Of a stretch of 33,251 bases of DNA, positions 43-19,026 are shown piece after piece. The position numbers and the translations under genes were made by a program. Position 1 is the first letter of the stretch; every line of letters begins with the position of its first letter. The DNA is from Alphaproteobacteria bacterium UBA5343 (GTDB lineage: Bacteria > Pseudomonadota > Alphaproteobacteria > RF32 > UBA5343): contig DHQH01000064.1 of NCBI GenBank assembly GCA_002410125.1, forward strand, positions 1 to 33,251. The letters run 5' to 3'. Below the pieces are notes generated by a model. That model ran no database searches and was not told where the DNA came from. It saw only the letters and a list, made by a program, of their open reading frames with translations.

Positions 43-1413
43 ATGACAACCGAACATATAAAAATCGGCGATATTACTCCCAGAGTAAGATACACCGCCA
101 ATGGAGTGTTAAGTGAATATAGCTTCTCATTCCCAATATTTAATGAAACAGATATTAAAGTTTATTTCAACGATAACCTACAAGAAACAAATTATAGCAT
201 TTCTGGAGTTGGTAATTCTAATGGAGGCTCTGTGATATTTAATACTCCTCCTACCAATGAAACTATCATCACCATTCTTCGAGATTTAAGCATTAAAAGA
301 ACTACTGATTTTCAAGAAGGTGGAGCTTTTAGAGCAAATGTAATTAATGATGAATTAGATTATCAAACAGCCTGCATTCAACAAATTTCAGATAATATCT
401 CAAGGACAGTAACCATTCCACCCTATGCTGCAGATAATATTGATATGACCCTACCTACAGCAACAGCAGGGAAAGCACTAATCTGGAATTCTAATGCAAC
501 AGGTTTAGAAAATTCCATTGAAAATTTCAATGAGATTACACAAACCATCTCAAACTCTGTAGATGAAACTATAAATGCTAAAGATATTACTCTAGCAGCA
601 AAAAATGAAGCAATAACAGCCAAAGATACAGCTGTAAGTATTGCTAATAATATCAATTTACCAAATATTACTGCCAATACTTACCTAAAAGCAAAATCAG
701 ATGCTTCTGGTTATGAAGCAAAATCTATTGGTGAACTAGCAGCAGATATCAACAAAGGTTATATCAACGGTTTAGATATATCATATTTAAATTCAACCTC
801 TATGCAAATCTCAACAGGTGTTTGCTTATCAGATGATAACTCAACAATGCTATCACTAACATCTAACACTAATGCAGTTTTATCTTCTGCTACTGCCAAC
901 ACAACCTATCACCTATTCTTAGGAGAAAATAATATTTTAGAGTTCGCTCAAAATATCAATGGTAGTGATTTGGTAAACATAACAGGAGCTAAAAGAAGAA
1001 TTGCATCATTTATAACCGATGGTAGTGCTAATTTAAGAGCTTTTAATAGCCAAAGAACAGGCAATAAAGTAAGAGTTGATTTGGGTAGTAGTGGATTAAT
1101 ACTTTTTAATGCAACATCTTCTCTTCCAACATCTTTTGCTGATTTATTTTGTGCTGTACCAACAGGGCTAAACTGCAATCTAACCTTAGCTACAGATTTA
1201 GTATCTTCAACAGATTCTATAATGTTATTAAAGGATAAAACTAACAACTTAAGTCCATCGGTCAATAGAACTAACTCATCAGTGCTTATATCCAAACAAT
1301 TCATCACCTTCTTAAAAAGTGATAATTTAGGAACCATTCAACACAAATGCACAACCACATCTGTTGATTATAACTATACAATAACCCTACTTGGTTTTGA
1401 ATATGAGGTATAA
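43..1413 (+). CDS. phage tail-fibre / receptor-binding-like structural protein
   Basis: 456-aa ORF. The N-terminal ~130 aa resemble conserved phage fibre N-terminal adaptor regions, and the C-terminal half is Asn/Ser/Thr-rich. It is followed 1 nt later by a small ORF, as in fibre plus chaperone pairs. Recognition by eye only. Confidence 0.45.
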   Translation: MTTEHIKIGDITPRVRYTANGVLSEYSFSFPIFNETDIKVYFNDNLQETNYSISGVGNSNGGSVIFNTPPTNETIITILRDLSIKRTTDFQEGGAFRANVINDELDYQTACIQQISDNISRTVTIPPYAADNIDMTLPTATAGKALIWNSNATGLENSIENFNEITQTISNSVDETINAKDITLAAKNEAITAKDTAVSIANNINLPNITANTYLKAKSDASGYEAKSIGELAADINKGYINGLDISYLNSTSMQISTGVCLSDDNSTMLSLTSNTNAVLSSATANTTYHLFLGENNILEFAQNINGSDLVNITGAKRRIASFITDGSANLRAFNSQRTGNKVRVDLGSSGLILFNATSSLPTSFADLFCAVPTGLNCNLTLATDLVSSTDSIMLLKDKTNNLSPSVNRTNSSVLISKQFITFLKSDNLGTIQHKCTTTSVDYNYTITLLGFEYEV

Positions 1414-1414
1414 T

Positions 1415-1675
1415 ATGAAAATATATGTAAAAAAAGAAAATGATAAAATAATCGCCTATAGTGAAACCCCACAAATAGGATGGCAGGAACTCGAAAAAGA
1501 TTGTAGTGAAATACAAGAATTTCTAAACCCACCCCCAACTTATAAAGATTTAAGAAAACAAGCCTATCCAAATATAGCAGATCAATTAGATATGTTATAT
1601 TGGGATAAAATCAATGGAACTAACAATTGGCAAGATTTAATATCTAGTATAAAAATCCTCTATCCCAAGCCTTAA
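1415..1675 (+). CDS. small phage-associated protein (possible tail-fibre assembly/chaperone-like)
   Basis: ATG at 1415 is preceded by GAGG (1405-1408) and lies 1 nt after the fibre gene's stop. The track ORF starts at TTG 1391, inside the upstream gene. Function is inferred from position only. Confidence 0.35.
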   Translation: MKIYVKKENDKIIAYSETPQIGWQELEKDCSEIQEFLNPPPTYKDLRKQAYPNIADQLDMLYWDKINGTNNWQDLISSIKILYPKP

Positions 1676-1687
1676 ATCATAAAACAA

Positions 1688-1710
1688 AGGGAGATGTTTT
1701 ACATCTCCCT
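1688..1710. terminator. bidirectional hairpin between convergent genes
   Basis: agggagatgt (1688-1697) / ttt / acatctccct (1701-1710) forms a perfect 10-bp stem. It overlaps the stop codon of the minus-strand Nudix gene. Confidence 0.5.
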
Positions 1711-2265
1711 ACTTGCTCTACAAGCCATAACAATTGATGCAGAATGAGGATTTTTTTTCATATCATTTGTTACCTGCTTATTATTTTCATATATATCAAC
1801 ATCAGCAAGATTTGTTACCTTTCCATGTTTAGAATAAACATTAAAAATCTGCCCTTTTAATATCATATCAAAAATTGGTGTATCAGGATTATGCATTTCA
1901 TGTTTTGGTAAATTTTTCTTATCCTGCCAAAAAGAAAAACATTCGTCATTCTCTCCAACAACTTCCCCCTCATATTCTTCTGTCTTATGAAATTCCACCC
2001 AAAAGTTAGGAGCATCTTTATTCTCAAAATATGCACTACCAACTACTCTTGGATTAATTGGAGTAATACCAGTTTCACTCTCAGTCTCTCTAATACTAGC
2101 CTCTATTAGGCTCTCATTTTTATCCTTCTTTCCTCCAGGACAATTCTTCAAACCTAAAAAAGGACCCCTCTTATGCTTAATCATTAGAAATTCTTGATTA
2201 TTATTTTCAACCACACAAACAGTAGCCTCAATAAACTCTTTACCATTAAATCTTCTTATTCCCAT
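1699..2265 (-). CDS. NUDIX hydrolase
   Basis: Nudix box GKKDKNESLIEASIRETESETGI (Gx5Ex7REUxExxGU-like). ATG at 2265 is preferred because GAGGG lies 5 nt upstream. The track ORF extends to 2292 with no RBS. Confidence 0.8.
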   Translation of the reverse strand: MGIRRFNGKEFIEATVCVVENNNQEFLMIKHKRGPFLGLKNCPGGKKDKNESLIEASIRETESETGITPINPRVVGSAYFENKDAPNFWVEFHKTEEYEGEVVGENDECFSFWQDKKNLPKHEMHNPDTPIFDMILKGQIFNVYSKHGKVTNLADVDIYENNKQVTNDMKKNPHSASIVMACRASREM

Positions 2266-2384
2266 AACACCCTCAAAAACACAACTATCCATAAGTTACA
2301 AACAGTTACAAAACAAAGTTAACCTATTATTAAAACTTATACAATTAACATATTATTATCAAGAAAATTATTTTGGAGGCTGAA

Positions 2385-2582
2385 ATGACTATTTACTATG
2401 TTAATAAAAAGCCTGAAAAGACAGGCGAACATCTAGTACATAAAAAAGAATGTGAACACAGACCAGCATATGAAAATTGTGATTATTTGGGTTATTTTGC
2501 AAAACCAGATGAAGCAGTAAGACAAGCAGAAATATTCTTAGAAAATATTAGCTCTTGTGAATTCTGTTGCAAAGAAGAATAA
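2385..2582 (+). CDS. small Cys-rich hypothetical protein
   Basis: ATG at 2385 is preceded by GGAGG (2375-2379). The 65-aa product has C..H and CxxCC motifs. Family not recognised. Confidence 0.45.
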   Translation: MTIYYVNKKPEKTGEHLVHKKECEHRPAYENCDYLGYFAKPDEAVRQAEIFLENISSCEFCCKEE

Positions 2583-2601
2583 CCCCTATTACAACTACAT
2601 A

Positions 2602-2640
2602 GTATTTACAATGTAAACAGATAACAAAAAATGAATTATA
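2602..2640. repeat. 39-bp direct repeat, copy 1 (contains palindrome TTTACAATGTAAA)
   Basis: gtatttacaatgtaaacagataacaaaaaatgaattata recurs at 2683-2721 with 2 mismatches. Confidence 0.8.
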
Positions 2641-2682
2641 CGAGTTACAACTAAAGCAATACATTCTATTATACGAGTTTAT

Positions 2683-2721
2683 GTATTTACAATGTAAACA
2701 GATAATAAAAAGTGAATTATA
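2683..2721. repeat. 39-bp direct repeat, copy 2
   Basis: gtatttacaatgtaaacagataataaaaagtgaattata. The spacer between copies is 42 bp. The spacer also repeats ttatacgagtt, seen at the 3-prime end of copy 1. Confidence 0.8.
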
Positions 2722-2738
2722 GCTAGTTAGTTTTAGGC

Positions 2739-2782
2739 ATTTAAGTTCGAACGTTTACAGGTTAGTAAATGAGAACTTAAAT
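2739..2782. other. 10-bp-stem hairpin in convergent intergenic region
   Basis: atttaagttc (2739-2748) and gaacttaaat (2773-2782) are exact reverse complements. The loop is 24 nt. Confidence 0.5.
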
Positions 2783-2836
2783 AACAACAAAATAACAGCT
2801 AGAATTCATTTTTCTTAATTATTTGAGAATTACGTA

Positions 2837-3229
2837 TTAGTTGACCGTAGAATCAAATGTTTCTTTGATGTGTTCTAACTCAGATATTATATTTTTGATT
2901 AATTCTTTGTTTACACAAACATCGGCAAATTCTTCACTTGAGAAAAAGTCTTTTTGAATTTTTTCACCTAAAAACTTCTTCACACCTTGTTCTTCAAATA
3001 CTTTTTGAAGTCCTTCGATTGTGTATCTTTTATTGTATAGGAAATCTTTGATTACATGGAGCAGTTTTACATCATCAGGACGATAATATCTTCTACTTCC
3101 GGCTCTTTTCATAGGTTGAAGTTGAGGGAACTTGGTTTCCCAGAATCTCAATACATGAGGGGCTAACTCAAGTTCACCTGAAACTTCAGCAATTGTTCTA
3201 AATGCAGCTTTTGATTTTTTGACTGGCAT
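2837..3229 (-). CDS. MerR-family transcriptional regulator
   Basis: N-terminal [28 protein letters not shown] and the RRYYRPDD motif. It lies downstream of ihfA, as is common in alphaproteobacteria. Confidence 0.85.
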
Positions 3230-3255
3230 ACTAGATTACAACCTTCCATCAACTA

Positions 3256-3552
3256 CTAAGCAGCAGAGTTGATTTCGTCTTTCATAAGTTGAGAAGGTTT
3301 GAAAGAAATAACTTTTCTTGGAGAAATAGTTGCTTCAACACCTGTTTTAGGGTTTCTACCAATTCTTTCATTTTTACTTCTAACTGTGAATGTTCCAAAA
3401 GAAGAAAGTTTTACACTATCACCTTTTACTAATTGGTTAGAAACTTCATCTAATACCATTTCTAAGATGTCTGCTGAATCTTTACGAGACAATCCAACTT
3501 CTTCATAAATAGCTTCAGCTAAGTCTACTCTTGTTATTGTTTTTTCTGACAT
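3256..3552 (-). CDS. ihfA: integration host factor subunit alpha
   Basis: 98 aa. The [14 protein letters not shown]...[23 protein letters not shown] signature of the IHF/HU fold is present. Confidence 0.9.
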
Positions 3553-3661
3553 TTTTAATTTTTCCTTTGTTTTGTATTCATCTCAATTTAAAGAAATAGA
3601 AAATTAATTCAAGTAAAATTTAATTAATTAACAAGTATCTAGTTTCTTTAAAGATAATAGA

Positions 3662-4633
3662 TTAAATTTTGATTAATCCAGCACCCCAAGTAAAACCACC
3701 ACCCATGGCATTAATCACTACTACATCACCTTTTTTGATCTTACCAGAATTAACATTTTCTGATAGAGCCAAAGGAATAGATGCAGCAGAAGTATTTGCA
3801 TGATTTTGTACGGTAATTACCACTTTTTCGTGAGCAATACCTAGCTTTTTACCTGTGCCTTCAATAATTCTAATATTTGCTTGATGAGGAACTAACCAGT
3901 CCACATCTTCTACAGATAAACCTGCATCACTAATAACTTCGTTTGCAACGGAAGTAAGATTAGTAATTGCATGTTTGAAAACTTCTTTACCATTCATATG
4001 GATAAAACCAGCTGTTTTTGTTATAGATGGACCACCATCTGTTGCTAAACTATCATAAAGTCTACCATCAGAATAAATTTTAGTACTAAGAACACCTTCT
4101 TTTTCATTTTCTTCTGTTTCTACAGCTTCTAAAACAACAGCCCCAGCTCCATCACCAAATAATACACATGTATTTCTATCTGTCCAATCAACAATCTTTG
4201 ATAATGTATCTGCACCAACTACAAGAGCTTTTTTAGCTTGCCCCATTTTCATCATATTATCAGCCATAGTCATAGCATACATAAAACCGGAACAAACAGC
4301 CTGCACATCAAATGCACATCCCTTTGCTCCAAGCATGCCTTGTAATTTTGTGGCTGTTGATGGGAAAGTATTATCAGGTGTAGTCGTACCCATAACAATT
4401 AAATCAATATCAGCAGCATCAATTTTTGCATATTCTAATGCTTTTGTAGCCGCCTTAAATGCTAGCTCAGATGTATATTCATCATCTTTTGCAATATGTC
4501 TTTTCTTAATGCCAGTTCTCTCAGTAATCCACTGATCATTAGTTTCAACCATTTTTTCCAAATCATGGTTAGTTAACACTTTTTCCGGCAAATAATGCCC
4601 AAACCCCGTAAGTTTAGAACAAATAACTGTCAT
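3662..4633 (-). CDS. fabH: beta-ketoacyl-ACP synthase III
   Basis: 323 aa. Active-site Cys context AVCSGF, plus HQANIRI and GGGFTWG motifs. Confidence 0.95.
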   Translation of the reverse strand: MTVICSKLTGFGHYLPEKVLTNHDLEKMVETNDQWITERTGIKKRHIAKDDEYTSELAFKAATKALEYAKIDAADIDLIVMGTTTPDNTFPSTATKLQGMLGAKGCAFDVQAVCSGFMYAMTMADNMMKMGQAKKALVVGADTLSKIVDWTDRNTCVLFGDGAGAVVLEAVETEENEKEGVLSTKIYSDGRLYDSLATDGGPSITKTAGFIHMNGKEVFKHAITNLTSVANEVISDAGLSVEDVDWLVPHQANIRIIEGTGKKLGIAHEKVVITVQNHANTSAASIPLALSENVNSGKIKKGDVVVINAMGGGFTWGAGLIKI

Positions 4634-4635
4634 AT

Positions 4636-5673
4636 CTATTTATCACCCTGAACTAGTTCATCCAAATTAAATCCATTGATTTCTTCTTTAATCTTTTCAT
4701 TAAGGTCACCCTTAACTGACTTAATAGCATTGTTAACTGCAATTGAAAAAGCAAATCCATCAGCCCCGCCATGACTTTTCACAGACAAGCCATTTAGACC
4801 TAAAAACATTGCACCATTATAAAGTCTTGGGTCCATAGTTTTCTTAACTTTCCTAAATATAGGTTTAGATAAGAGCCCCATTATAATACCCCAAATAGAT
4901 CCTAGGAAAGCTTTTTTAGTAAGTTTTAATACTAATTTCGCAGTACCTTCAATAGATTTTAAGGCTACATTACCTGTAAACCCATCAGTAACTACAACAT
5001 CAGTCAAACCTTCTGCAATATTATCAGCTTCAACAAAACCATAAAAATTAACATCAGGAAATGAAGTTTTTAAGATATCAGATGCTTTATGCAACTCTTC
5101 TTTACCTTTCATATCCTCAGAACCAATATTTAGTAATCCTACACTAGGTTTGTCAATACCAAGACAAACTCTTGCAAAATTCTCACCCATAATTGCAAAT
5201 TCAACTAGATTCTCAGGACCACATTCAACATTAGCCCCAAGATCAAGCGCAACCACTCTACCTTTAATAGTTGGCATTATAGTACAAATTGCTGGTCTAT
5301 GGATTTTTTGTAAGGTTCTAAGAGCAAGTTTTGATATTGCCATTAAAGCACCAGTATTACCAGCAGACACTACAGCATCAGCCTTACCAGTTTTAACAGC
5401 ATTTACAGCTTGCCACATACTTGTTTTTTTATTTCGAATAACCTGAGACGGTTTATCATCACTAGAAACTATATCCTCGGCATGAATAAACTCACATTTC
5501 TTTAGATTTTTTGCATATTTATCTAAAGAATTGCGACATTTTTCTTCATTACCATATATAATAAAACTTGCTTTAGGGAATTTTTTACTACTAAGCGCAA
5601 CACCCTCAATAATAGCATCGGGGGCATTATCACCCCCCATTGCATCAATAGATATAACTATTTTTTCGGACAA
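4636..5673 (-). CDS. plsX: phosphate acyltransferase PlsX
   Basis: IDAMGGDNAP motif near the N-terminus. TTG at 5673 is preceded by AAAGGAG. The track ORF also starts with TTG, at 5700, but has no RBS. Confidence 0.93.
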   Translation of the reverse strand: MSEKIVISIDAMGGDNAPDAIIEGVALSSKKFPKASFIIYGNEEKCRNSLDKYAKNLKKCEFIHAEDIVSSDDKPSQVIRNKKTSMWQAVNAVKTGKADAVVSAGNTGALMAISKLALRTLQKIHRPAICTIMPTIKGRVVALDLGANVECGPENLVEFAIMGENFARVCLGIDKPSVGLLNIGSEDMKGKEELHKASDILKTSFPDVNFYGFVEADNIAEGLTDVVVTDGFTGNVALKSIEGTAKLVLKLTKKAFLGSIWGIIMGLLSKPIFRKVKKTMDPRLYNGAMFLGLNGLSVKSHGGADGFAFSIAVNNAIKSVKGDLNEKIKEEINGFNLDELVQGDK

Positions 5674-9979: not shown

Positions 9980-11386
9980 TTACTTACTCCCATTATCAAC
10001 CAGATATTTAGCCACTTCAAAAACTCTACTCGAATATCTAGCACCTTTTATAAGTAAAGCATCACCATCTCGTAAGATATTATTATATAACTCTTCACCC
10101 AGTCCATCTTTAGTTTCAAAATAATGCTTTTCGACATTATCTGGAATTTGTTCTAATATAATTTTAGTTTCTTCGCAAACCCCAATCACAATATCAATAT
10201 TAAGTTCTGCAACCAATTTACCAACACTAATATGCTCTTTTTCACTCTTATCACCAAGCTCTGCCATCTTACCTAAAACAGCAACTCTTCGCCCCTTAAC
10301 CTTCTTACCATTAAGACCTTTAAGAGCAAGTCTCATCGCTTCTGGTTGACCTGAATAGCTATCATCAATAAGCATATATTCTTCACCATTATAATTATGC
10401 AGTTTATACTCCTTACCTCTACCATCCAAAGCACCAAAATCTTTTAACAAATCAGCAGATTTTTGAATATCTAAACCAAGAGCATAACAAACAGCTAACA
10501 CACTCAAAGAATTATAAACCTTATGCTCTCCAGTCTCTGTCAACATATATTCATATTCTTGCTTAGCAATACTTATTTTCACAAAAGATTTATCATCTCG
10601 CTCTTCAATAGATATAAGTTTTATCACTGCATTATCAGACTTACCATAAGAGATAATATTATAAGCTCCATTATCTGATGCTAAATCAAACAATAAATCA
10701 GCAAAATCAGTATCCGCATTTATAACTGCAGTTTTATATACTGAACTCTCTTTAAACCCTTCAAATATTTCACCTTTAGCCCTAGCAATACCTTCATATT
10801 CATCAAAAAACTCAATATGCATCGGATGAATATTAGTAATAATCGCAATATCAGGCTTAATAATATTAGTCAGATATCTAATCTCACCCTCAGCACTCAT
10901 ACCCATTTCTAAAACTGAATAATCAACATCCTCTGGCATATCACAAATACTAATCGGCACCCCAATAAAATTATTATGATTACCTTTAGTCGCAAACACC
11001 TTACCATAATTTTGCAAAACAAATTTTATTTCTTCTTTAGTTGTTGTTTTACCAGCACTACCAGTCAACCCAACTATAACTCCTGCAAATTTATTTCTCA
11101 TATATCCAGCAATTTTTCCAAATGCTTCAATAGTATCTTCTACAACTACTTGCCTATCTTGTGGAGCACTTTTTATCAGTTTAGATACTAATACAAGCCC
11201 CACCCCTTTTTCTAAAACATCTAACACAAAATTATGCCCGTCGAAGTTTTCACCTTTTATCGCAATAAAAAGATCTCCAGCCTTAATATCCCTACTATCT
11301 CTTGAAGCATTGGTAATAACACAATCAATTACTTCTGATGAGCTACCAACAACCTCAACCAACTCTTTTGATGTTAAATTCAACAT
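9980..11386 (-). CDS. murF: UDP-N-acetylmuramoyl-tripeptide--D-alanyl-D-alanine ligase
   Basis: 468 aa. Mur ligase P-loop GLTGSAGKTTTKE and DSYSGQPEAM near the C-terminal domain. Confidence 0.9.
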   Translation of the reverse strand: MLNLTSKELVEVVGSSSEVIDCVITNASRDSRDIKAGDLFIAIKGENFDGHNFVLDVLEKGVGLVLVSKLIKSAPQDRQVVVEDTIEAFGKIAGYMRNKFAGVIVGLTGSAGKTTTKEEIKFVLQNYGKVFATKGNHNNFIGVPISICDMPEDVDYSVLEMGMSAEGEIRYLTNIIKPDIAIITNIHPMHIEFFDEYEGIARAKGEIFEGFKESSVYKTAVINADTDFADLLFDLASDNGAYNIISYGKSDNAVIKLISIEERDDKSFVKISIAKQEYEYMLTETGEHKVYNSLSVLAVCYALGLDIQKSADLLKDFGALDGRGKEYKLHNYNGEEYMLIDDSYSGQPEAMRLALKGLNGKKVKGRRVAVLGKMAELGDKSEKEHISVGKLVAELNIDIVIGVCEETKIILEQIPDNVEKHYFETKDGLGEELYNNILRDGDALLIKGARYSSRVFEVAKYLVDNGSK

Positions 11387-11413
11387 TAACCTACCTTACA
11401 ATTACAATATTAC

Positions 11414-12682
11414 TTACTTATAAATTGGAAACTGTTTGCAAAGATTAACAACCTTACCTGCAACTTCTTTCTCTATCATATCATTTCCATCTGCACCATT
11501 TGCAGCTAATCCATCAACCACATCACCAATCAGATTACCAATCAACTCAAATTCTTGCACTCCAAATCCACGACTAGTTCCAGCAGGAGATCCAATTCTA
11601 ATCCCTGAGGTAACAGTTGGTTTTTCTGGATCATAAGGAACCGCATTTTTATTACAAGCTATATGAGCTCTCTCTAAAGCCGCATCAACAACCTTACCTG
11701 TTAATCCTTTAGGTCTCAAATCAACTAACACCACATGAGTATCTGTACCATCAGATACAATATCCATTCCTCTTTTCTTTAATGTATCAGCTAAAATATT
11801 AGCATTATCTACTACATTCTTAGCATATTGCTTAAACTCTGGAGCTAAAGCCTCACCAAAACAAACCGCTTTTGCCGCAATCACATGCATTAAAGGCCCA
11901 CCTTGTGAGCCTGGAAAAATAGCAGAATTTACTTTTTTAGCAATTGTCTCATCATTAGTAAGTATCATCCCACCTCTTGGACCTCTAAGGGTCTTATGAG
12001 TAGTGGTTGTAACAACATCTGCATATTTTAAAGGGTTTTCATGTACCCCACCTGCAACAAGACCTGCAAAATGAGCCATATCCACCATCAAATATGCCCC
12101 AACCTTATCCGCAATTGCTCTAAACTTAGCAAAGTCAATCGCTCTTGGATAAGCCGAACCACCAGCGATAATAAGCTTTGGATTATGCTCTAATGCTAAT
12201 CTTTCAACTTCTTCAAAATCTATTCTCGCATCTTCTTTTTTTACACCATATTGAACAGCATTTAACCATTTACCAGAAATAGAAGGTCTAGCACCATGGG
12301 TTAAATGACCACCAGCATCAAGCGACATACCTAAAATAGTATCATGAGGTTTAAGTAGAGCCAAATACACCCCACTATTAGCTTGAGATCCTGAATGAGG
12401 CTGAACATTTGCAAATTTAGCATTAAATAATTTCTTAGCTCTCTCAATTGCAAGGCTTTCTGCTTTGTCAACTACTTCACAACCACCATAATATCTACGA
12501 CCAGGATAACCCTCTGCATATTTATTTGTAAGCACTGACCCTTGAGCATCTAAAACTGCTTTTGATACAATGTTTTCCGAAGCAATCAACTCTATTTGAT
12601 TTTGTTGTCTTTCTAATTCTTCATTCACAATATCAAAAATATCAACATCTACTTCTTTTAAATCTTTTTCAAACCTGTTCAT
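11414..12682 (-). CDS. glyA: serine hydroxymethyltransferase
   Basis: 422 aa. PLP-lysine motif [14 protein letters not shown]. Confidence 0.97.
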
Positions 12683-12739
12683 TATTCACTATTCCTTCTT
12701 TTATCAATCATTTAAATTCACTCTTCAAAATACATAAAA

Positions 12740-12766
12740 GCAAAAGACGAGGATCCAGTTCTATTG
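12740..12766. repeat. degenerate fragment of the palindromic element family
   Basis: gcaaaagacgagga matches the right-arm core of copy F. It is directly followed by ccagttctattg, which matches the stop-proximal arm of copy D. Confidence 0.45.
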
Positions 12767-12787
12767 CTTTAGCAATTCCATATTCTC

Positions 12788-13216
12788 TTAATATTTGTTT
12801 AGACGGTTTTGGTGACGACCACCCTCAAACTCACTATTTAGAAATACTTTAACACATTCCTTAGCTTTATCTAATTCAATAACTCTTCCGCCAAAAATAA
12901 TTACATTAGCATTATTATGTTCTTTAGCCATTTGTGCTTCAAACTCATTATGAAGCAATGCCCCTCTTACATGACTATGTCGATTAACCGCCATTGACAT
13001 CCCAATACCAGTTCCACATACTAAAATTCCGATACTATCAATATTATTAGCTAAAAAATCAGCCATTTTCTTTGCATAATCAGGATAATCAACAGATTCG
13101 GGAGTATAAGGTCCTAAATCATCAGTTTGATATCCTAACTCTTCTACATAATTTTTTAATGAGTTTTTTAACTCATAGCCACCATGATCTGATGCCAATA
13201 TAATTGTTTTTTCCAT
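12788..13216 (-). CDS. rpiB: ribose-5-phosphate isomerase B
   Basis: ILASDHGG and CGTGIGMSMAVNR motifs. ATG at 13216 is preceded by AGGTGA. The track start is GTG at 13225, inside that RBS. Confidence 0.92.
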   Translation of the reverse strand: MEKTIILASDHGGYELKNSLKNYVEELGYQTDDLGPYTPESVDYPDYAKKMADFLANNIDSIGILVCGTGIGMSMAVNRHSHVRGALLHNEFEAQMAKEHNNANVIIFGGRVIELDKAKECVKVFLNSEFEGGRHQNRLNKY

Positions 13217-13320
13217 AAAAATCACCTAGTTAGATTTACACATCTCTTTTAATGTATAGCTAGAATACAGCCAATCATAAAAAAAATGAACATTTTTTTA
13301 TCTTTTTTACAAAAAAATTA

Positions 13321-13349
13321 TTGACCTTCTAAAATATTTTGATTATATA
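13321..13349 (+). promoter_or_regulatory. candidate sigma70 promoter for the tRNA-Cys/tRNA-Asn pair
   Basis: TTGACC (13321-13326), a 17-bp spacer, then TATATA (13344-13349), about 38 nt upstream of tRNA-Cys. Confidence 0.4.
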
Positions 13350-13387
13350 TTCTTCAACGACGAAAGTTGTGGACGACTTTGTATCGT

Positions 13388-13461
13388 GGCCGGATGGCAG
13401 ATTGGTTATGCAGAGGACTGCAAATCCTTGTAGCTCGGTTCGATTCCGGGTCCGGCCTCCA
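13388..13461 (+). tRNA. tRNA-Cys (GCA)
   Basis: Hand-folded cloverleaf. Acceptor GGCCGGA/TCCGGCC, anticodon loop CUGCAAA, T-loop TTCGATT, discriminator U and encoded CCA. Confidence 0.92.
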
Positions 13462-13486
13462 AAAATTACAACAGATTAAAATCTGT

Positions 13487-13562
13487 TCCGGCATAGCTCA
13501 GTTGGTAGAGCAAGCGGCTGTTAACCGCTTTGTCGCAAGTTCGAGTCTTGCTGCCGGAGCCA
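13487..13562 (+). tRNA. tRNA-Asn (GUU)
   Basis: Acceptor TCCGGCA/TGCCGGA, D-stem GCTC/GAGC, anticodon stem AGCGG/CCGCT with loop CUGUUAA, T-stem GCAAG/CTTGC and encoded CCA. Confidence 0.93.
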
Positions 13563-13862
13563 ATTTGAACCCTTTGATAGATTTACGAATTTATCAAAGG
13601 GTTTTCTTATTGAAAACTCTAGATTTTTTCCATCTATTACTAAGTTCGAGAAAACAAAATTAATAATTTTCCTTTTTACATCAATTTCCGAACTTTTAAA
13701 TAACTCAAAAGCCCTAGAAGATATATCCAGTAAGTAGTTAACCGTTATTGAGAACTCATCATTAGCCTTACCTACTTTATCCAATCTTACTTTTATATTG
13801 TATTGTTCTGTTTTTAATTCATTTGCTTTTTTGTTATATACATCTGTTGTAATACTCATCAA
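13521..13862 (-). pseudogene. C-terminal remnant of a large serine recombinase reading antisense into tRNA-Asn
   Basis: The 113-aa ORF resembles only the extreme C-terminal region of large serine recombinases (...SSRAFELFKSSEIDVKRKIINFVFSNLVIDGKNLEFSIRKPF...). No catalytic N-terminal domain is present, and only 91 bp separate it from the next gene. The tail ...WLRQQDSNLRQSG is the antisense translation of the tRNA. Confidence 0.6.
13570..13608 (+). terminator. rho-independent terminator after tRNA-Asn
   Basis: ccctttgata (13570-13579) / tatcaaaggg (13592-13601) form a 10-bp stem, followed by ttttctt. Confidence 0.75.
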
Positions 13863-13892
13863 TAGTTAAATATTAACCACATCTAAATATTA

Positions 13893-13921
13893 TTTACTTA
13901 CAGTTGCATATAAGGTATAAT
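13893..13921 (+). promoter_or_regulatory. candidate sigma70 promoter for the 72-aa ORF
   Basis: TTTACT (13893-13898), a 17-bp spacer, then a perfect TATAAT (13916-13921). GGAG lies at 13940-13943, 10 nt before the ATG at 13954. Confidence 0.45.
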
Positions 13922-13953
13922 GTTTCTTAAGGTAAACACGGAGTAATCAAACA

Positions 13954-14172
13954 ATGACTAATGACAAACCAAAAACTAAGGAAGAAAAAGTGAGTTGGAT
14001 AAACCATATCAAAAACAGATTAAAAAAACTTTGTTCTAAAGAAGATGAAAAACAAGAAGAATTTGTTTCTATGGGCGAAATGAAACTTCCTACTAATGAA
14101 GAATATAAGAAATATTTAGATACATTATCTAAAGAAGAATTAGAAAAAGTAAGAGATAGACACTATAGATAG
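13954..14172 (+). CDS. small Lys/Glu-rich hypothetical protein
   Basis: 72-aa ORF with promoter-like and RBS-like signals upstream. No family recognised. Confidence 0.4.
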   Translation: MTNDKPKTKEEKVSWINHIKNRLKKLCSKEDEKQEEFVSMGEMKLPTNEEYKKYLDTLSKEELEKVRDRHYR

Positions 14173-14282
14173 AGTTTTTTATAACCTCAGAAGCAAAATG
14201 GTATGTTCCCCAACCAACAGGATATTTCTATCAAACCATATTTGATAGAAATAATTTATATGTTTCTGATGATAATATATCT

Positions 14283-15947
14283 GTGTTAAAAGAAATATTC
14301 AATAAACCTAATAATCGTTATAATACTTTTGAAGTTTTACCTTTTAATACTAACAGAGAGATTTTACACAATACTATTTCCTGTTTTTCAACTTATGTAA
14401 AGTATGAAGATGAATCTGAACTAATTGATAATATATCCAACAATACCTATTCTATACAAAATACAATAAATAAAAAAAACATAAGCAAAATTCACAATAA
14501 AATTAATAAAAATATAAATAAAAAGTATAAATTGTATAGATTAAATAGATTATCTAATAACACAGATGAATATAAAGATTTCAAGAAATTTGAAAAATTA
14601 TTACAAGAAAGTAACATCGAAAATATTGATGATAATCTATTATTACTTGTTTCTAGCAAATATAAAAAAATTGAGACTAATAACTTTATTAGAAAACAAA
14701 TTATTAGATATATAAATAAAAATACAAATCTATCAAAAATAAATTCTGATAGAAACAAACACAAAAACATAGCTTTAGTTACTGGAGCACCAGCATCTGG
14801 AAAATCTAGTGTTGTCGATATGTATAAAAGTTTATCTTTTAATAATATGAATTTTAATCAGGTTATTAAGATAAATCCTGACTACTACAAAGAGCTATTG
14901 CTAGATACTAAAGGTTTTAATGAAAGTGATATAATAAACTTTGGTTCATATACACACGAGGAATCTGCTATCATTAACGATATGGTTATAAGTGAATGGA
15001 TAAAAAAAGAAAATAAAAACAAACATTCCCATTTAATGATAGACACAAGCAATGCATCCCCTTGGTATATAGATATTATACAAAACACGAACAAACACGG
15101 GAAACTTGATATATTATCTGTTACTGTTAACACCCAAAATGCTTTAGAAAGGTCATACACAAGAGGAAAAGAAAAGAGTAGATTCGTTCCCACTAAATTA
15201 TTGCTTGCGAGACATAAAGAGCAACTAGGTATATTTATAAATAATACTATACATTATAACGAGTTACCTATCAGAATTTTTTCTAATGATGTTGATTTTG
15301 GAGAAGTTATTAAAGATACTCTAAAAAAGAGAGCTAATGCAGACACAATAGAAATCTACGATATGAAATCAGCTGTAGAGTTTTGGAATAAACAGTATAT
15401 TAATATAGATGCTGTAAATGTTGAAGAAATACAAACAAAAGAAGATGAATATAATGAGGCATTAATAGGTTTTGCCAAAAGAACAGGTAAAGAAGTTAAG
15501 TTATTTGATGTTGAGGGTAAGCAAGTTATAGCTAATGTTACAGAAAATGGTTTTGAAATATTAAATAGATTTGAATTCAATAAGGTAATTGATAAAGCAG
15601 GATATCAAGAAGAAAAGAAAATACCTGAGTTAGGTAGCTTAATTAATAAACATAAAGGAACTTTCAGTAATAAAGAACCTGAAGCAATTAAGAAACCTAT
15701 AAAAGATGAAGAATTAGAAGAAATAAATAATAATTTAGGTTCTACATTTGAAAGAAATAAAGGAATAGCAAAAATACTTAATAGTCTCATTAGGTCTAAA
15801 GATAAGTTATTAGGTAAAGAAAAGAATAACCGTGAAGAGAACAATCAAAAAGATAGTAACTTAACTAATGATATTAACGAAAAGAATAATAAAATATCTG
15901 ATATTATTAATAGCCTTAAAATTGCTAAAGAAAAAAATAATAATTAA
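14283..15947 (+). CDS. zeta-toxin/AAA-like P-loop kinase-domain protein with Asn/Lys-rich extensions
   Basis: Walker A ALVTGAPASGKSS and a Walker-B-like HLMIDTS. The first in-frame Met lies after the P-loop, so the start must be GTG 14283 or a non-canonical codon upstream. The frame is open back to 14169. Confidence 0.55.
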   Translation: MLKEIFNKPNNRYNTFEVLPFNTNREILHNTISCFSTYVKYEDESELIDNISNNTYSIQNTINKKNISKIHNKINKNINKKYKLYRLNRLSNNTDEYKDFKKFEKLLQESNIENIDDNLLLLVSSKYKKIETNNFIRKQIIRYINKNTNLSKINSDRNKHKNIALVTGAPASGKSSVVDMYKSLSFNNMNFNQVIKINPDYYKELLLDTKGFNESDIINFGSYTHEESAIINDMVISEWIKKENKNKHSHLMIDTSNASPWYIDIIQNTNKHGKLDILSVTVNTQNALERSYTRGKEKSRFVPTKLLLARHKEQLGIFINNTIHYNELPIRIFSNDVDFGEVIKDTLKKRANADTIEIYDMKSAVEFWNKQYINIDAVNVEEIQTKEDEYNEALIGFAKRTGKEVKLFDVEGKQVIANVTENGFEILNRFEFNKVIDKAGYQEEKKIPELGSLINKHKGTFSNKEPEAIKKPIKDEELEEINNNLGSTFERNKGIAKILNSLIRSKDKLLGKEKNNREENNQKDSNLTNDINEKNNKISDIINSLKIAKEKNNN

Positions 15948-16064
15948 AAACTAAACAATTCTGTTTGTAACTCCTTCAATTTGAGGAATTAATGGATAGA
16001 AAAACATAATATCATCATAAGATTTTGTTCGGAGTTCCTCCAATAAGGGGAGCCAATTAAAATG

Positions 16065-16092
16065 AAAAACCACTCCTTTAGGGGTGGTTTTT
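16065..16092. terminator. bidirectional rho-independent terminator
   Basis: aaaaa-ccactcc-ttta-ggggtgg-ttttt has A- and T-runs on both sides. It overlaps the last codons of the minus-strand 384-aa gene. Confidence 0.65.
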
Positions 16093-17232
16093 TATTTTAG
16101 ATAGTTTTTTATAATAAAACCTTGAACTTAGAAATTTTATCTCCCCCCCATTATCACTTCTATCATATACAGTCATGATTCTAGCTTTTTCCCATGTATT
16201 TAATATATGTTTATCTTCTTCGCCAAAATGATTTTCACTTTTCTCAATTTTCCAATCATCTCTTATTTTATCTTCTAACTCATACTGAACACCAAAAGCA
16301 TGTCGCTCAAAAGGAAGCATCGTATAAAAATCCTTATAGTCAACATCATCCTTCGATATTTCCTCATCTTCATAGACTTTAACAGCCCCAATATTTGCCG
16401 TCATCACCCTATTTATATCCTCATCTTCAAACTTATTAGAAGTCTGATAAAGATGTATAGCCTCATGAAAAGGAACAGAAATTGGGAAGAAATTATCACT
16501 CTTCATCAACCGCTCTTCGTTAAAGTTAAAACTACCATTATAAAAAGCCCCAGGAACATGAACATCTACACTCCAGCCTTTCTCTTCCCTTCTCTTCAAA
16601 TAACTTTCACTATTATAGAAATTAACATCCTTACTCTCAACTCCATAAACCTCATAAAAAATTTCCAATGTCTCTCTAATCAAATTTTTTCTATCTTCCA
16701 AAGAACAATTGTCATAATCTGCAATCATATTCTTAGTATTCTCATTATGCTTAATCTTACTCCAAAATTGATCAACTAATTTACTTTCCTTATCCATAAA
16801 CTCCCTAGAGAACTTCATATTAAATAAACAAGCCTTCAAATTATCTTTTTGTTCAACTATCAAATCCTTAATATTACTAAAATCCTCACGAAGTAAAGAA
16901 TCTGGAAATAAAGCTTCAAGATAATCAACTTTCTCCTTAAAAGATAACCCCACCACCTCATTAGAACTCATTGATTTAAACTTGCTGACTTTCTTTACTC
17001 TTAATTTTTCCTTTAGCTCTGTATTCTTTTTATATTTAGTAAAATATTGCTTATGCTTTTCTGTAAATTCAGACTTAGAAATCTCATTAAATTTTTTTAT
17101 AATACTATTAACAATTTGTCTCTTTTTATTAGGATGTTTTTTATATTTAAAATAAATTGTATCATCTTTTGGATTTAGAATAAAACAACAATAATCCATA
17201 AGAAATTCATAATCTTTATAAGTCATTTCCAT
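16078..17232 (-). CDS. HExxH-motif protein (putative zinc metallopeptidase-like)
   Basis: 384 aa. PFHEAIHLYQ (HExxH), with LPFERHAF about 50 aa downstream as a possible third-ligand region. AGAGG lies 9 nt upstream of the ATG. Confidence 0.5.
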   Translation of the reverse strand: MEMTYKDYEFLMDYCCFILNPKDDTIYFKYKKHPNKKRQIVNSIIKKFNEISKSEFTEKHKQYFTKYKKNTELKEKLRVKKVSKFKSMSSNEVVGLSFKEKVDYLEALFPDSLLREDFSNIKDLIVEQKDNLKACLFNMKFSREFMDKESKLVDQFWSKIKHNENTKNMIADYDNCSLEDRKNLIRETLEIFYEVYGVESKDVNFYNSESYLKRREEKGWSVDVHVPGAFYNGSFNFNEERLMKSDNFFPISVPFHEAIHLYQTSNKFEDEDINRVMTANIGAVKVYEDEEISKDDVDYKDFYTMLPFERHAFGVQYELEDKIRDDWKIEKSENHFGEEDKHILNTWEKARIMTVYDRSDNGGEIKFLSSRFYYKKLSKIKNHP

Positions 17233-17382
17233 ATTAAAAAACCTCTAATTAAAAACATATTACAACAATATCATATTATTCATCAAAAATCCACCCCACA
17301 AAAAAAAGAACCATCCTCCCCCATTAGAAAATAAATTTACATTTAATATTTGATAATCTATTATAAAATAAATAACATATAA

Positions 17383-17886
17383 ATGGATAATCATATGCTT
17401 CTATTAACAGGTAAACCTCATATTGGAAAATCAACCGCAATTAAAAAAATTATTAATTGTCTTGGACACGAAAATTGCGGAGGATTTTGGACTGAAGAAA
17501 TTATAAAAGAAAATGAAGAATTAAGAACAGGTTTTATGATACATACCTTTGATGGTAACTCAGGCATACTAGCAGATGTAAATTATACATCAGATTTAAG
17601 AATTAGCCGTTATGGGGTCAATATTGAAGAATTTGAGAAATTATGCCTTCCTGCTTTAGAGACAGCAATTAGAGACAAAGAATATGTAATCATCGATGAA
17701 ATCGGACCTATGCAGGTTTTTTCTAAAAAATATCAAAATATATTATACAAACTATTAAATTCAAATAAGAAAATAATCGGCACTATATTCCATGACTCTC
17801 ACCCTTGGTTAGATGAATTTAAAAAACAAAAATCAATCAAACTATATGAACTAACCAAAGAAAACAGAGATACATTATGGCTTTAA
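17383..17886 (+). CDS. THEP1-like nucleoside-triphosphatase (P-loop)
   Basis: Walker A LLTGKPHIGKST, Walker B VIIDEIGPMQ, GF.T.E and RTGF spacing, and a size of about 165 aa. The start may be ATG 17395. Confidence 0.65.
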   Translation: MDNHMLLLTGKPHIGKSTAIKKIINCLGHENCGGFWTEEIIKENEELRTGFMIHTFDGNSGILADVNYTSDLRISRYGVNIEEFEKLCLPALETAIRDKEYVIIDEIGPMQVFSKKYQNILYKLLNSNKKIIGTIFHDSHPWLDEFKKQKSIKLYELTKENRDTLWL

Positions 17887-17937
17887 CTTGTTCAACAAGT
17901 AAACTCTACCCAAACATCATAAAAAACTCACAAAAAA

Positions 17938-18936
17938 CTATTTCTTATCAATCTTAAATATTGCCTGAATAGATTCTAAAACCTTATCCAAATTTATCGG
18001 TGGTTTATATTCTTTCTTTAATTTAATAATTGATATAAACTGCTTAAGACTCAAATTATTCCAATCCCCAATCGCCTCAATAATCTTAGCCCCAACCACA
18101 AATGGTTGTTGAAACTTATGATAAGGATAAGTTCTCAGCACTGCAGTTGATGAAATCAAAGGAATAAGCAAATCCTTATCTATAAATATTTTGCGATTAG
18201 GCTTTGGCAACTCATTATAAAAATCAACAATATCATAAACGAAATTTTTAGGAAAAGCCAAATCCGATAAATTCGACCCAATAGAAATAAACTCAACATA
18301 AACACTAGACATTCTAGCCACACCAAAATCAATAAAACTAACCTTTTGTGTTTCTATATCGTAAAAGATATTTCTAGGTGCAATATCACCATGAATTGGC
18401 ACAATAACATCATCTTTTAAAAAGCTATCAGCCTTTTTCAAAAACTCTTTAAAACTTTTCCAAACTCCAATTTTTTTAATATCTTTCATTATCTTCTTAT
18501 TACCCATCAAAAAAGGTTTTATCCCCTTAGGATATTTCTTCCAAAAAGATGATTTAGACTGATGTAAATCATTTAAAAATAAAGCAATATTTTTAGCTAT
18601 ATCATATTTCTTCACCTTACTCATATTTTCCATCATATCTTTTGTAAGCTCTTTACCTATAGCACACTCTTCTATCGAATAGCCAATCTCTTCATTTATA
18701 CAAAGAATACGAGGAATTAACACATTGGGGTTTTTATTAATTTTATAAGCAAAATCACCTGCAATTTTAGCTCTTTTTTGTAGAATCAACCAAGAATGTT
18801 TAGTCTCTTCATTTATAGCTTTTTTAACTATATATTTCTTACCATCTTCATCATTATTATACATATAAGCATTAGAAAAAATCCCAGCTCCAATCTTTTC
18901 CAAATTATCTATTTCTTTACTGTTAAATTTTCTCAT
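17938..18936 (-). CDS. protein-kinase-like fold phosphotransferase (APH/ePK-like)
   Basis: Gly-rich loop KIGAGIFSNAY, Lys in YIVKKA, catalytic loop IHGDIAPRNIFY and metal-binding IDFGVA. Confidence 0.7.
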   Translation of the reverse strand: MRKFNSKEIDNLEKIGAGIFSNAYMYNNDEDGKKYIVKKAINEETKHSWLILQKRAKIAGDFAYKINKNPNVLIPRILCINEEIGYSIEECAIGKELTKDMMENMSKVKKYDIAKNIALFLNDLHQSKSSFWKKYPKGIKPFLMGNKKIMKDIKKIGVWKSFKEFLKKADSFLKDDVIVPIHGDIAPRNIFYDIETQKVSFIDFGVARMSSVYVEFISIGSNLSDLAFPKNFVYDIVDFYNELPKPNRKIFIDKDLLIPLISSTAVLRTYPYHKFQQPFVVGAKIIEAIGDWNNLSLKQFISIIKLKKEYKPPINLDKVLESIQAIFKIDKK

Positions 18937-18994: not shown

Positions 18995-19026
18995 CAAAAA
19001 AAGAGAGTGGTACTTTCACCACTCCC
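18995..19026 (-). terminator. rho-independent terminator of the hydG transcript
   Basis: The minus strand reads GAGTGGT-GAAAGT-ACCACTC followed by TCTTTTTTTG. It lies distal to palindromic element B. Confidence 0.7.

Follow-up and report, generated by a model that had tools for sequence, protein, structure and literature searches.

A probable dead 2.5-kb element, once driven by a large serine recombinase, at a tRNA-Asn gene tip in an AT-biased alphaproteobacterial genome

Introduction

How far does an integrative element reach when all that is left of its recombinase gene is a stump beside a tRNA gene, and which of the neighbouring genes did it bring along? The question is raised by a stretch of 33,251 nucleotides (nt) from Alphaproteobacteria bacterium UBA5343 (assembly GCA_002410125.1, contig DHQH01000064.1, positions 1 to 33,251, forward strand; hereafter the window), in which an open reading frame (ORF) of 113 amino acids (aa) akin to large serine recombinases (LSRs) runs antisense into tRNA-Asn. 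A preliminary description, made from the letters alone, had placed here a tRNA-Asn-flanked island with five cargo genes, extending from 13388 to 18936. We favour, with high probability, a different reading: a dead LSR-driven integrative element of 2,493 bp at the tip of tRNA-Asn, with both ends mapped and with the genes for an HExxH protein, a THEP1-like nucleoside-triphosphatase (NTPase) and a kinase-fold protein lying outside it.

The window has a GC content of about 31%, carries a GcrA gene and derives from a beach-sand metagenome (contig record from SRR1569871). The genes murF, glyA and rpiB on the minus strand are followed by tRNA-Cys and tRNA-Asn on the plus strand, by the stretch under study and then by hydG and a TM1266-like gene. 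Position 13388, where the proposed island begins, is the start of a tRNA-Cys gene that the preliminary description did not mention. The features at this end are the following.

13388-13461, plus strand: tRNA-Cys(GCA), first of the tRNA-Cys/tRNA-Asn pair (ARAGORN; Rfam tRNA, 54.2 bits)
13487-13562, plus strand: tRNA-Asn(GTT), intact, the putative integration target (ARAGORN; Rfam tRNA, 69.6 bits)
13521-13862, minus strand: 3' stump of an LSR gene, open over 113 codons, equal to residues ~390-505 of relatives of ~500 aa
13863-13910, minus strand: degenerate continuation of the recombinase with in-frame stops (tblastn alignments reach 13907-13910)

A decapitated recombinase gene antisense to tRNA-Asn

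The stump overlaps the final 42 nt of tRNA-Asn in antisense, its last 13 codons being tRNA antisense. The T-arm and acceptor end of the tRNA, read in reverse, encode its tail QQDSNLRQSG; the C-terminus reads ...RKPFDKFVNLSKGSNWLRQQDSNLRQSG and the stop codon falls in the anticodon loop. A phmmer search against 1.84 billion representative proteins gave 1835 matches at E <= 1e-3, 535 of them at E <= 1e-10 and the best at 8e-26. The full-length matches (492-544 aa) align solely through their last ~110 residues (~390-510). Pfam domains Resolvase and Recombinase, with or without Zn_ribbon, are present in six full-length relatives and in two gut-virome proteins found by tblastn, and no Pfam domain is recognised in the 113-aa ORF. 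When 16 full-length relatives were compared with the window by tblastn, a single region matched, 13524-13910; no counterpart of their residues 1 to ~372 was detected anywhere in the window. Pfam and tblastn likewise found no Resolvase catalytic domain with its serine nucleophile, no Recombinase part and no zinc-ribbon part there. Three stops lie in frame upstream of the TTG/ATG start of the stump. Since homology ends at 13910, stops precede the start and the N-terminal part is missing, we conclude that an internal deletion, with a junction at ~13910-13950, took away ~370 N-terminal codons of the gene. The stump descends from an LSR and is not a functional enzyme. The preliminary description had read the ORF in the same way, as only the extreme C-terminus of an LSR, deprived of its catalytic domain and running antisense into tRNA-Asn, and in this it was right.

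Both ends of the element

Alignments of the family, window stump included, reveal a conserved PFD motif followed by 11 residues and then by a tryptophan (W) encoded by the antisense of the tRNA CCA. The PFD motif is present in 146 representatives. Tails of the tRNA type, in which the residues after W (L..xDSN) are the antisense of the acceptor and T arms, occur in 66 of them, and about 23 have native tails, W-L-P-L-L-D-x-x-R-T and then ~25 residues that are not tRNA-derived. A hidden Markov model (HMM) was built from 23 native tails picked by regular expression and searched against 1498 six-frame pieces of the window. The ends that we propose are listed here.

13556-13565, no strand: predicted attL core GGAGCCAATT, made of the last 7 nt of tRNA-Asn plus ATT
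16049-16058, no strand: predicted attR core GGAGCCAATT, a direct repeat of attL that abuts the tail
15951-16048, minus strand: native C-terminus of the recombinase, detached from the stump (LPLLEELRTKSYDDIMFFYPLIPQIEGVTNRIV and a stop codon), found by the tail HMM and putative P' arm of attR

The HMM gave one strong match, at 15954-16091 on the minus strand (26.4 bits, E = 5e-7), which reads NWLPLLEELRTKSYDDIMFFYPLIPQIEGVTNRIV and a stop; the runner-up had E = 0.79. In 2786 control pieces from seven other loci the best E-value was 0.59, and the top scores in 30 locally shuffled windows were 6.0-12.2 bits. The decamer GGAGCCAATT has exactly two copies in the window versus 0.014 expected by chance. 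Its minus-strand reading is N-W-L, at the position of the conserved W of the family, and this N-W-L is also that of the tail match. When stump and tail are joined at the core, the frame is kept and a complete C-terminus of the family type results. The native-tail match, the in-frame join and the second copy of the core together place attR at 16.05 kb, and the element would measure 2,493 bp between attL and attR.

A repeat of 10 nt is short, and the HMM derives from only 23 tails chosen by regular expression. On these grounds tail match and repeat might have met by chance, the stump being stranded without a definable far end among ordinary chromosomal genes. We regard such an accident as extremely improbable: the score stands well apart from those of the shuffled windows and the control pieces, the match abuts the repeat exactly at the N-W-L codons and in frame with the stump, and the flank beyond it matches the terminators of relatives (see next section). 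Three independent coincidences would be needed at one spot.

Because the core is only 10 nt long, no longer tRNA repeat is found: the 18-, 31- and 42-nt pieces of the tRNA-Asn 3' end have no second copy in the window, mismatches allowed. The direct repeat of this end that had been anticipated near 19.0-21.1 kb lies at 16.05 kb and is limited to these 10 nt. To the right of 16.06 kb, tblastn, the tail HMM and the repeat search detected no recombinase fragment, native tail or core repeat. With attR at 16.05 kb, only a 72-aa ORF and a zeta-like gene would therefore lie within the element. The idea of a fixed, immobile remnant at a tRNA attachment site, with its LSR gene decapitated and antisense to tRNA-Asn, holds for this locus; its extent shrinks from ~5.5 kb to 2.5 kb, bounded by 13556-13565 and 16049-16058, and three of the five supposed cargo genes are left outside.

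Terminators and a reconstruction of the insertion site

Two hairpins flank the predicted junctions.

13567-13604, plus strand: 17-bp hairpin directly after tRNA-Asn, within the recombinase coding end, where it encodes KPFDKFVNLSKGS (-22.5 kcal/mol, z = -5.7)
16057-16100, plus strand: putative ancestral intrinsic terminator of tRNA-Asn, 20 pairs plus T-run (z = -5.0), common to the convergent HExxH gene

The second of them stands directly to the right of attR, displaced by 2.49 kb, and overlaps the last codons of the HExxH gene. The synteny glyA-rpiB-tRNA-Cys-tRNA-Asn is retained in three distant alphaproteobacterial relatives, all of which have such a terminator within ~8 nt after tRNA-Asn. 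When the flanks of the window are joined, tRNA-Asn is followed by ATTAAAATGAAAAACCACTCC-TTTA-GGGGTGGTTTTTTATTTT. Over the 50 nt past CCA, these joined flanks align to relatives L004, L030 and L025 with scores of 7, 10 and 1; the relatives score 6-9 with one another, and the present-state sequence scores -9 with each of them. Joining the flanks would restore the layout of the distant relatives, tRNA-Asn with a terminator directly behind it, which is the nearest substitute for a comparison with an empty site.

The three relatives are gut/rabbit 'uncultured Alphaproteobacteria' (including CAG:495), with the arrangement at 366-519 of L004, 9680-9838 of L025 and 9498-9665 of L030. The genes past their tRNA-Asn terminator are wholly different, indicating a synteny break point in the group. 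Their tRNA-Asn terminators have the stem motif ACCACC/GGTGGT; in the window, ACCACTC/GAGTGGT is common to the ancestral tRNA-Asn terminator (16070-16090) and to the terminator of hydG (19005-19024).

Logan contigs of the source run cover 13.5-21.5 kb at a depth of ~7x and glyA/rpiB (window 11500-13500) at ~0x. A 1.9-kb contig (L001) nevertheless carries glyA/rpiB, and the gap in depth is probably produced by the conserved-gene filter of the tool and not by a real absence. Exact look-up of the RpiB protein gave only a 1.9-kb Logan contig of the same sample, and that of the THEP1-like protein gave no record. No alternative junction appeared in these contigs, a result of low informative value given the even ~7x depth.

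The preliminary description had also seen a terminator immediately after tRNA-Asn. The terminator scan does find the strong hairpin 13567-13604, with a weak T-run. Since the insertion parts the tRNA genes from their own terminator, pushed 2.5 kb off, this hairpin may now end the tRNA-Cys/Asn transcript. It would be a putative surrogate terminator of the operon. Among LSR-bearing relatives, a perfect hairpin of 11 bp stands beside the tRNA in L082 and one of 9 bp in L083; L086 yielded no comparable hairpin, and the fold at this place in L092 is not significant (z = -0.13).

Base composition and the extent of the element

The segment 13863-18995 has 27.0% GC versus 31.6% in the rest of the window, in line with the hyper-AT-rich island of the preliminary description. 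The foreign origin that such a term evokes does not follow. The GC content at third codon positions (GC3) of the five genes is 0.213 versus 0.212 for 27 other genes (Mann-Whitney p = 0.84), and the deficit is confined to first and second positions (GC1/GC2), the proteins being rich in N, K and I and poor in G, A, R and P. With GC3 at the level of the host genes, there is no signature of foreign DNA in the low GC; it reflects weakly constrained proteins in an AT-biased genome. The stretch 25.3-30.5 kb, with envelope genes for a DUF4139 protein, a secreted protein and an 804-aa membrane protein, has 27.2% GC, the same GC1/GC2 pattern and a normal GC3.

A single remnant of ~5.5 kb, running from tRNA-Asn to ~18.95 kb with five cargo genes and a right end lost or near hydG, would account for the high AT content that the five genes share and for their wealth of N, K and I. 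It agrees as well with an assembly depth equal to that of the flank, with three of the five genes being orphans or near-orphans and with the fact that tRNA-Asn of the distant relatives L025 and L030 has none of the five beside it. It is made very unlikely by an attR at 16049-16058 marked with the native tail of the recombinase itself, by the ancestral tRNA terminator directly past it, overlapping the end of the HExxH gene, and by the lack of a second tail or longer tRNA repeat farther right; the host-like GC3 and the equally AT-rich 25.3-30.5 kb stretch take away its compositional argument.

Somewhat less improbable, and still unlikely in our judgement, is accretion in tandem, in which the HExxH-THEP1-kinase block would be an older island at the same tRNA-Asn, with recombinase and att sites decayed, and the 2.5-kb element the newest arrival. 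Stacked serine-integrase islands at tRNA and transfer-messenger RNA (tmRNA) genes are known, for example the Dehalococcoides ssrA islands (PMC3146451), and the three genes are low in GC1/GC2 and have few or no homologs. Their GC3 is again host-like, however, and the searches right of 16.06 kb returned no recombinase fragment, tail or core repeat. Moreover, the terminator directly after attR resembles the native ones of the relatives, whereas the end of an older element would have displaced it. We therefore retain the 2.5-kb element with an ordinary chromosomal right flank.

Genes inside the element

The interior of the element, between stump and detached tail, holds two genes and a hairpin.

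13954-14172, plus strand: 72-aa K/E-rich ORF, candidate antidote, regulator or recombination directionality factor
14223-14253, plus strand: AT-rich hairpin of 13 bp in the gap from the 72-aa ORF to the zeta-like gene (fold of 14165-14285, z = -3.4)
14283-15947, plus strand: 554-aa P-loop kinase of the zeta-toxin family, cargo (Pfam Zeta_toxin, E = 5.5e-10)

The 72-aa ORF is preceded by a promoter-like site at 13893-13921. It has only sub-threshold matches in scans of protein families and no likeness to known antitoxins. A gap of 110 nt, with the hairpin, separates it from the zeta-like gene. The product of the latter, already described as a zeta-like P-loop protein, is confirmed as such by Zeta_toxin (PF06414; 39.5 bits versus a cut-off of 22.3, residues 154-311). 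It displays a Walker A motif, GAPASGKS (168-175), the motif INPDYY (197-202) and a plausible catalytic Asp, between long N- and C-terminal extensions. One homolog with 43% identity was found (L085), on a 2.2-kb contig of 26% GC in a different context, with its N-terminal part in another frame. The kinase core has a weak likeness to hypothetical proteins of large Bacteroides phages and no sequence match in the PDB, solved zeta/PezT structures included. PADLOC defence models gave no match to the zeta-like protein and only local P-loop or catalytic-loop matches among the window proteins.

No cognate antitoxin of the epsilon/PezA type, co-transcribed from directly upstream, was recognised; the 72-aa ORF occupying this place matches no antitoxin family. 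The family of the kinase and its location could point to a toxin-antidote or abortive-infection role for the pair, which we put forward tentatively and rate as less probable than not. As an addiction or abortive-infection type of module, kinase and small ORF may have aided the persistence of the element.

Upstream of its GTG start, the zeta-like frame stays open through another 38 codons (14166-14285), among which there is no ATG, GTG or TTG. This open frame begins one base off the stop of the 72-aa ORF (TAG 14166-14168 and TAG 14170-14172). A past frameshift may possibly have split one longer gene into the 72-aa ORF and the zeta-like gene; the N-terminal part of the L085 homolog also lies in a different frame.

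Proposed history of the element

We propose that the 3' tip of tRNA-Asn once received a small LSR-driven element. Its attP would have been located within the last codons of the recombinase gene, which integration would split. The gene body would end up beside the tRNA, in antisense, and acquire the tRNA-encoded tail ...NWLRQQDSNLRQSG, and the native tail of 33 residues (LPLLEELRTK...) would be carried to the far end of the element. The internal deletion would have come later, leaving a remnant that cannot move by itself. Between the LSR stump and the tail detached from it, this remnant retains the 72-aa ORF and the gene of the zeta-like kinase. The genes for the HExxH, THEP1-like and kinase-fold proteins would have neighboured tRNA-Asn already before the insertion.

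Several observations weigh against this history or parts of it. An old deletion would leave unexplained why the stump is still an open frame over 113 codons. The intact relative L093, used as a positive control, shows no native tail within the available 10 kb, and both ends of an intact relative were thus not found. The zeta-like kinase is twice the size of classical zeta/PezT, and the hairpin parts it from a 72-aa ORF that does not look like an antitoxin. The surrogate hairpin has a poor T-run, and a comparable hairpin is found in two of the four relatives checked. For the empty tRNA-Asn site that was to be sought in relatives, the joined flanks are only a substitute: they match the layout of L004, L030 and L025, and no close relative with a truly empty site was obtained (in the contig scan for relatives the nearest RpiB match has 56% identity among matches listed). 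A metagenome scan with the 31-mer of the tRNA-Asn 3' end retrieved only five unrelated high-GC organisms.

Neighbouring genes outside the element

Beyond attR the window carries the three remaining genes of the supposed island.

16078-17232, minus strand: 384-aa orphan with one HEAIH motif (residues 256-260), outside the element
17383-17886, plus strand: 167-aa NTPase of the THEP1/NTPase_1 family (Pfam NTPase_1, E = 2.6e-43), outside the element
17938-18936, minus strand: 332-aa protein of APH/protein-kinase fold (HGDIAPRN 182-189, IDFG 202-205), outside the element

All five genes of the preliminary description are present in the orientations it gave. Their own terminators, also announced, are seen in part: strong hairpins follow tRNA-Asn and the 72-aa gene and lie between the zeta-like and HExxH genes, and none separates the THEP1-like from the kinase gene. 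A simple hydropathy scan revealed no hydrophobic segment like a signal peptide or transmembrane helix in any of the five proteins.

The HExxH motif of the 384-aa protein exists, as a single motif in a protein with neither family match nor homolog; 0.027 such motifs are expected by chance in this protein. A word-indexed search among 5.8 billion proteins returned no homolog. Pfam, NCBIfam, PHROG and PADLOC gave no match, none even at E <= 10, and there was no plasmid match. The best PDB hit is a marginal one to M23 (E = 0.06), and the single-sequence AlphaFold2 model is unusable (predicted local distance difference test score, pLDDT, 42.7).

The THEP1-like and kinase-fold assignments are both upheld. 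The former matches PF03266 over model positions 2-164 of 168 (148.2 bits, cut-off 23.9), with Walker A GKPHIGKST (10-18) and Walker B IIDEIG (103-108), and falls below the cut-off of the NCBIfam equivalog PRK13695 (144.8 versus 156 bits). The family is patchily distributed in bacteria. The THEP1-like protein shares 46% identity with an annotated nucleoside-triphosphatase on a 0.9-Mb Pontibacillus replicon. The 332-aa protein passes the threshold of Pfam APH (PF01636; 32.2 bits versus 23.2, E = 1.2e-7) and stays below that of Pkinase (29.2 versus 31.7); in the PDB it matches APH(2'')-Id (E = 7e-5). No named NCBIfam APH/Mph family was passed, the best being APH(2'') with 26.3 bits against a cut-off of 475, and the word-indexed search found no homolog. 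It is thus predicted to be a kinase-fold protein and not a recognisable resistance gene. Nothing in our searches links these three genes to a mobile element.

The recombinase family and its two tails

In six relatives the 3' end of the recombinase gene also runs antisense into a tRNA gene: tRNA-Leu (L082), tRNA-Glu (L083), tRNA-Gln (L086, L093 and, truncated, L094) and tRNA-Asn (L092). The sole other relative whose DNA was read, a truncated 283-aa form with native tail (L095-L097), has no tRNA gene nearby. No cargo is common to the window and nine related loci. Viral contigs, when scanned, yielded no match to the stump, to the family alignment or to a full-length relative. In the literature searched we found no description of tRNA-tip targeting by this LSR family, the closest case being DsiB of Dehalococcoides.

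In L093 all genes of a type I restriction-modification system (HsdR, HsdM, HsdS) and a helix-turn-helix gene, apparently cargo, stand ahead of the intact recombinase gene at tRNA-Gln (46-5520, 10001-11548). Other decapitated copies of the family are internal ORFs, not at contig edges: L094 2947-3663, L095 5050-5901, L096 565-1416 and L097 118-969. The L094 copy is a 238-aa stump at tRNA-Gln on a contig of 31.7% GC. The identical 283-aa native-tail stump was read on four contigs; L095-L097 come from three samples, with an ATPase_2 gene after each. Either recurrent truncation is common or the C-terminal half of the recombinase has an independent life.

A more speculative proposal, which we consider doubtful, is that native-tail and tRNA-tail enzymes form a built-in directionality switch and that the 3' end of the window stump was exapted as terminator of the tRNA operon. 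The excised form would then encode the enzyme with the native tail (WLPLLDxxRT...) and the integrated form the one with the tRNA-encoded tail. The two isoforms might differ in integration or excision activity and dispense with a separate directionality factor. Use as a terminator could help to explain why the stump was retained.

Relation to known systems

The Resolvase + Recombinase + zinc-ribbon architecture of the full-length relatives is that of the phage and ICE integrases phiC31, Bxb1, A118/LI, TP901-1 and SPbeta SprA and of staphylococcal CcrAB. LSRs act by a 2-bp crossover, with which the short identical core of the attachment sites is consistent here. For classical members the usual targets are protein-coding genes or intergenic sites, and attP is located elsewhere than in the integrase gene. 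Unlike them, the element of the window would have its site within the last codons of the integrase, and integration would swap the C-terminal ~33 residues for a tRNA-encoded tail.

Genomic islands target tRNA genes, and their attP often completes the gene (PMC12884075). The nearest parallel is offered by the ssrA islands of Dehalococcoides. There, the CcrB-like serine recombinase DsiB is encoded on the reverse strand beside attL, and the far boundary is recognised by a 20-bp repeat of the 3' end of tmRNA. The closest relative of dsiB, from a metagenomic fosmid, has an ssrA direct repeat inside dsiB at the place of attL (McMurdie et al. 2011, PMC3146451). These islands measure 10-30 kb, have an integration module of six genes and occur in tandem copies and as fixed, immobile remnants (PMC3146451). 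The window shares with them a reverse-strand LSR gene at attL, the 3' end of a small stable RNA and a short repeat at the far end. It differs in the use of a tRNA tip, the 10-nt core, the tiny size and the decapitated recombinase; the likeness to DsiB meant here is one of layout.

The cargo resembles epsilon/zeta and PezAT by its Zeta_toxin domain, Walker A motif, plausible catalytic Asp, small upstream ORF and location on a mobile element. It departs from them by its 554 aa with long extensions, versus ~250-290 aa, by a 72-aa ORF without antitoxin homology and by the 110-nt spacer with a hairpin.

Significance

The window holds a dead representative of an element type already known; as a remnant it is immobile, its biology is ordinary and the function of its cargo is no more than putative. 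The interest of the locus rests on the clean mapping of its junctions and on host range. Base-precise boundaries of an element can be obtained from a stranded stump if the search is made with the native tail that was split off and not with a long tRNA repeat. In the present case, a supposed 'effector island' of five genes was thereby reduced to a 2.5-kb element with a single real cargo gene. For AT-rich genomes, a low-GC patch with host-like GC3 indicates weakly constrained proteins and not a recent import. The host range of this family of serine integrases, which would target tRNA tips with an attP inside their own gene, now includes Alphaproteobacteria and contigs of the human-gut virome.

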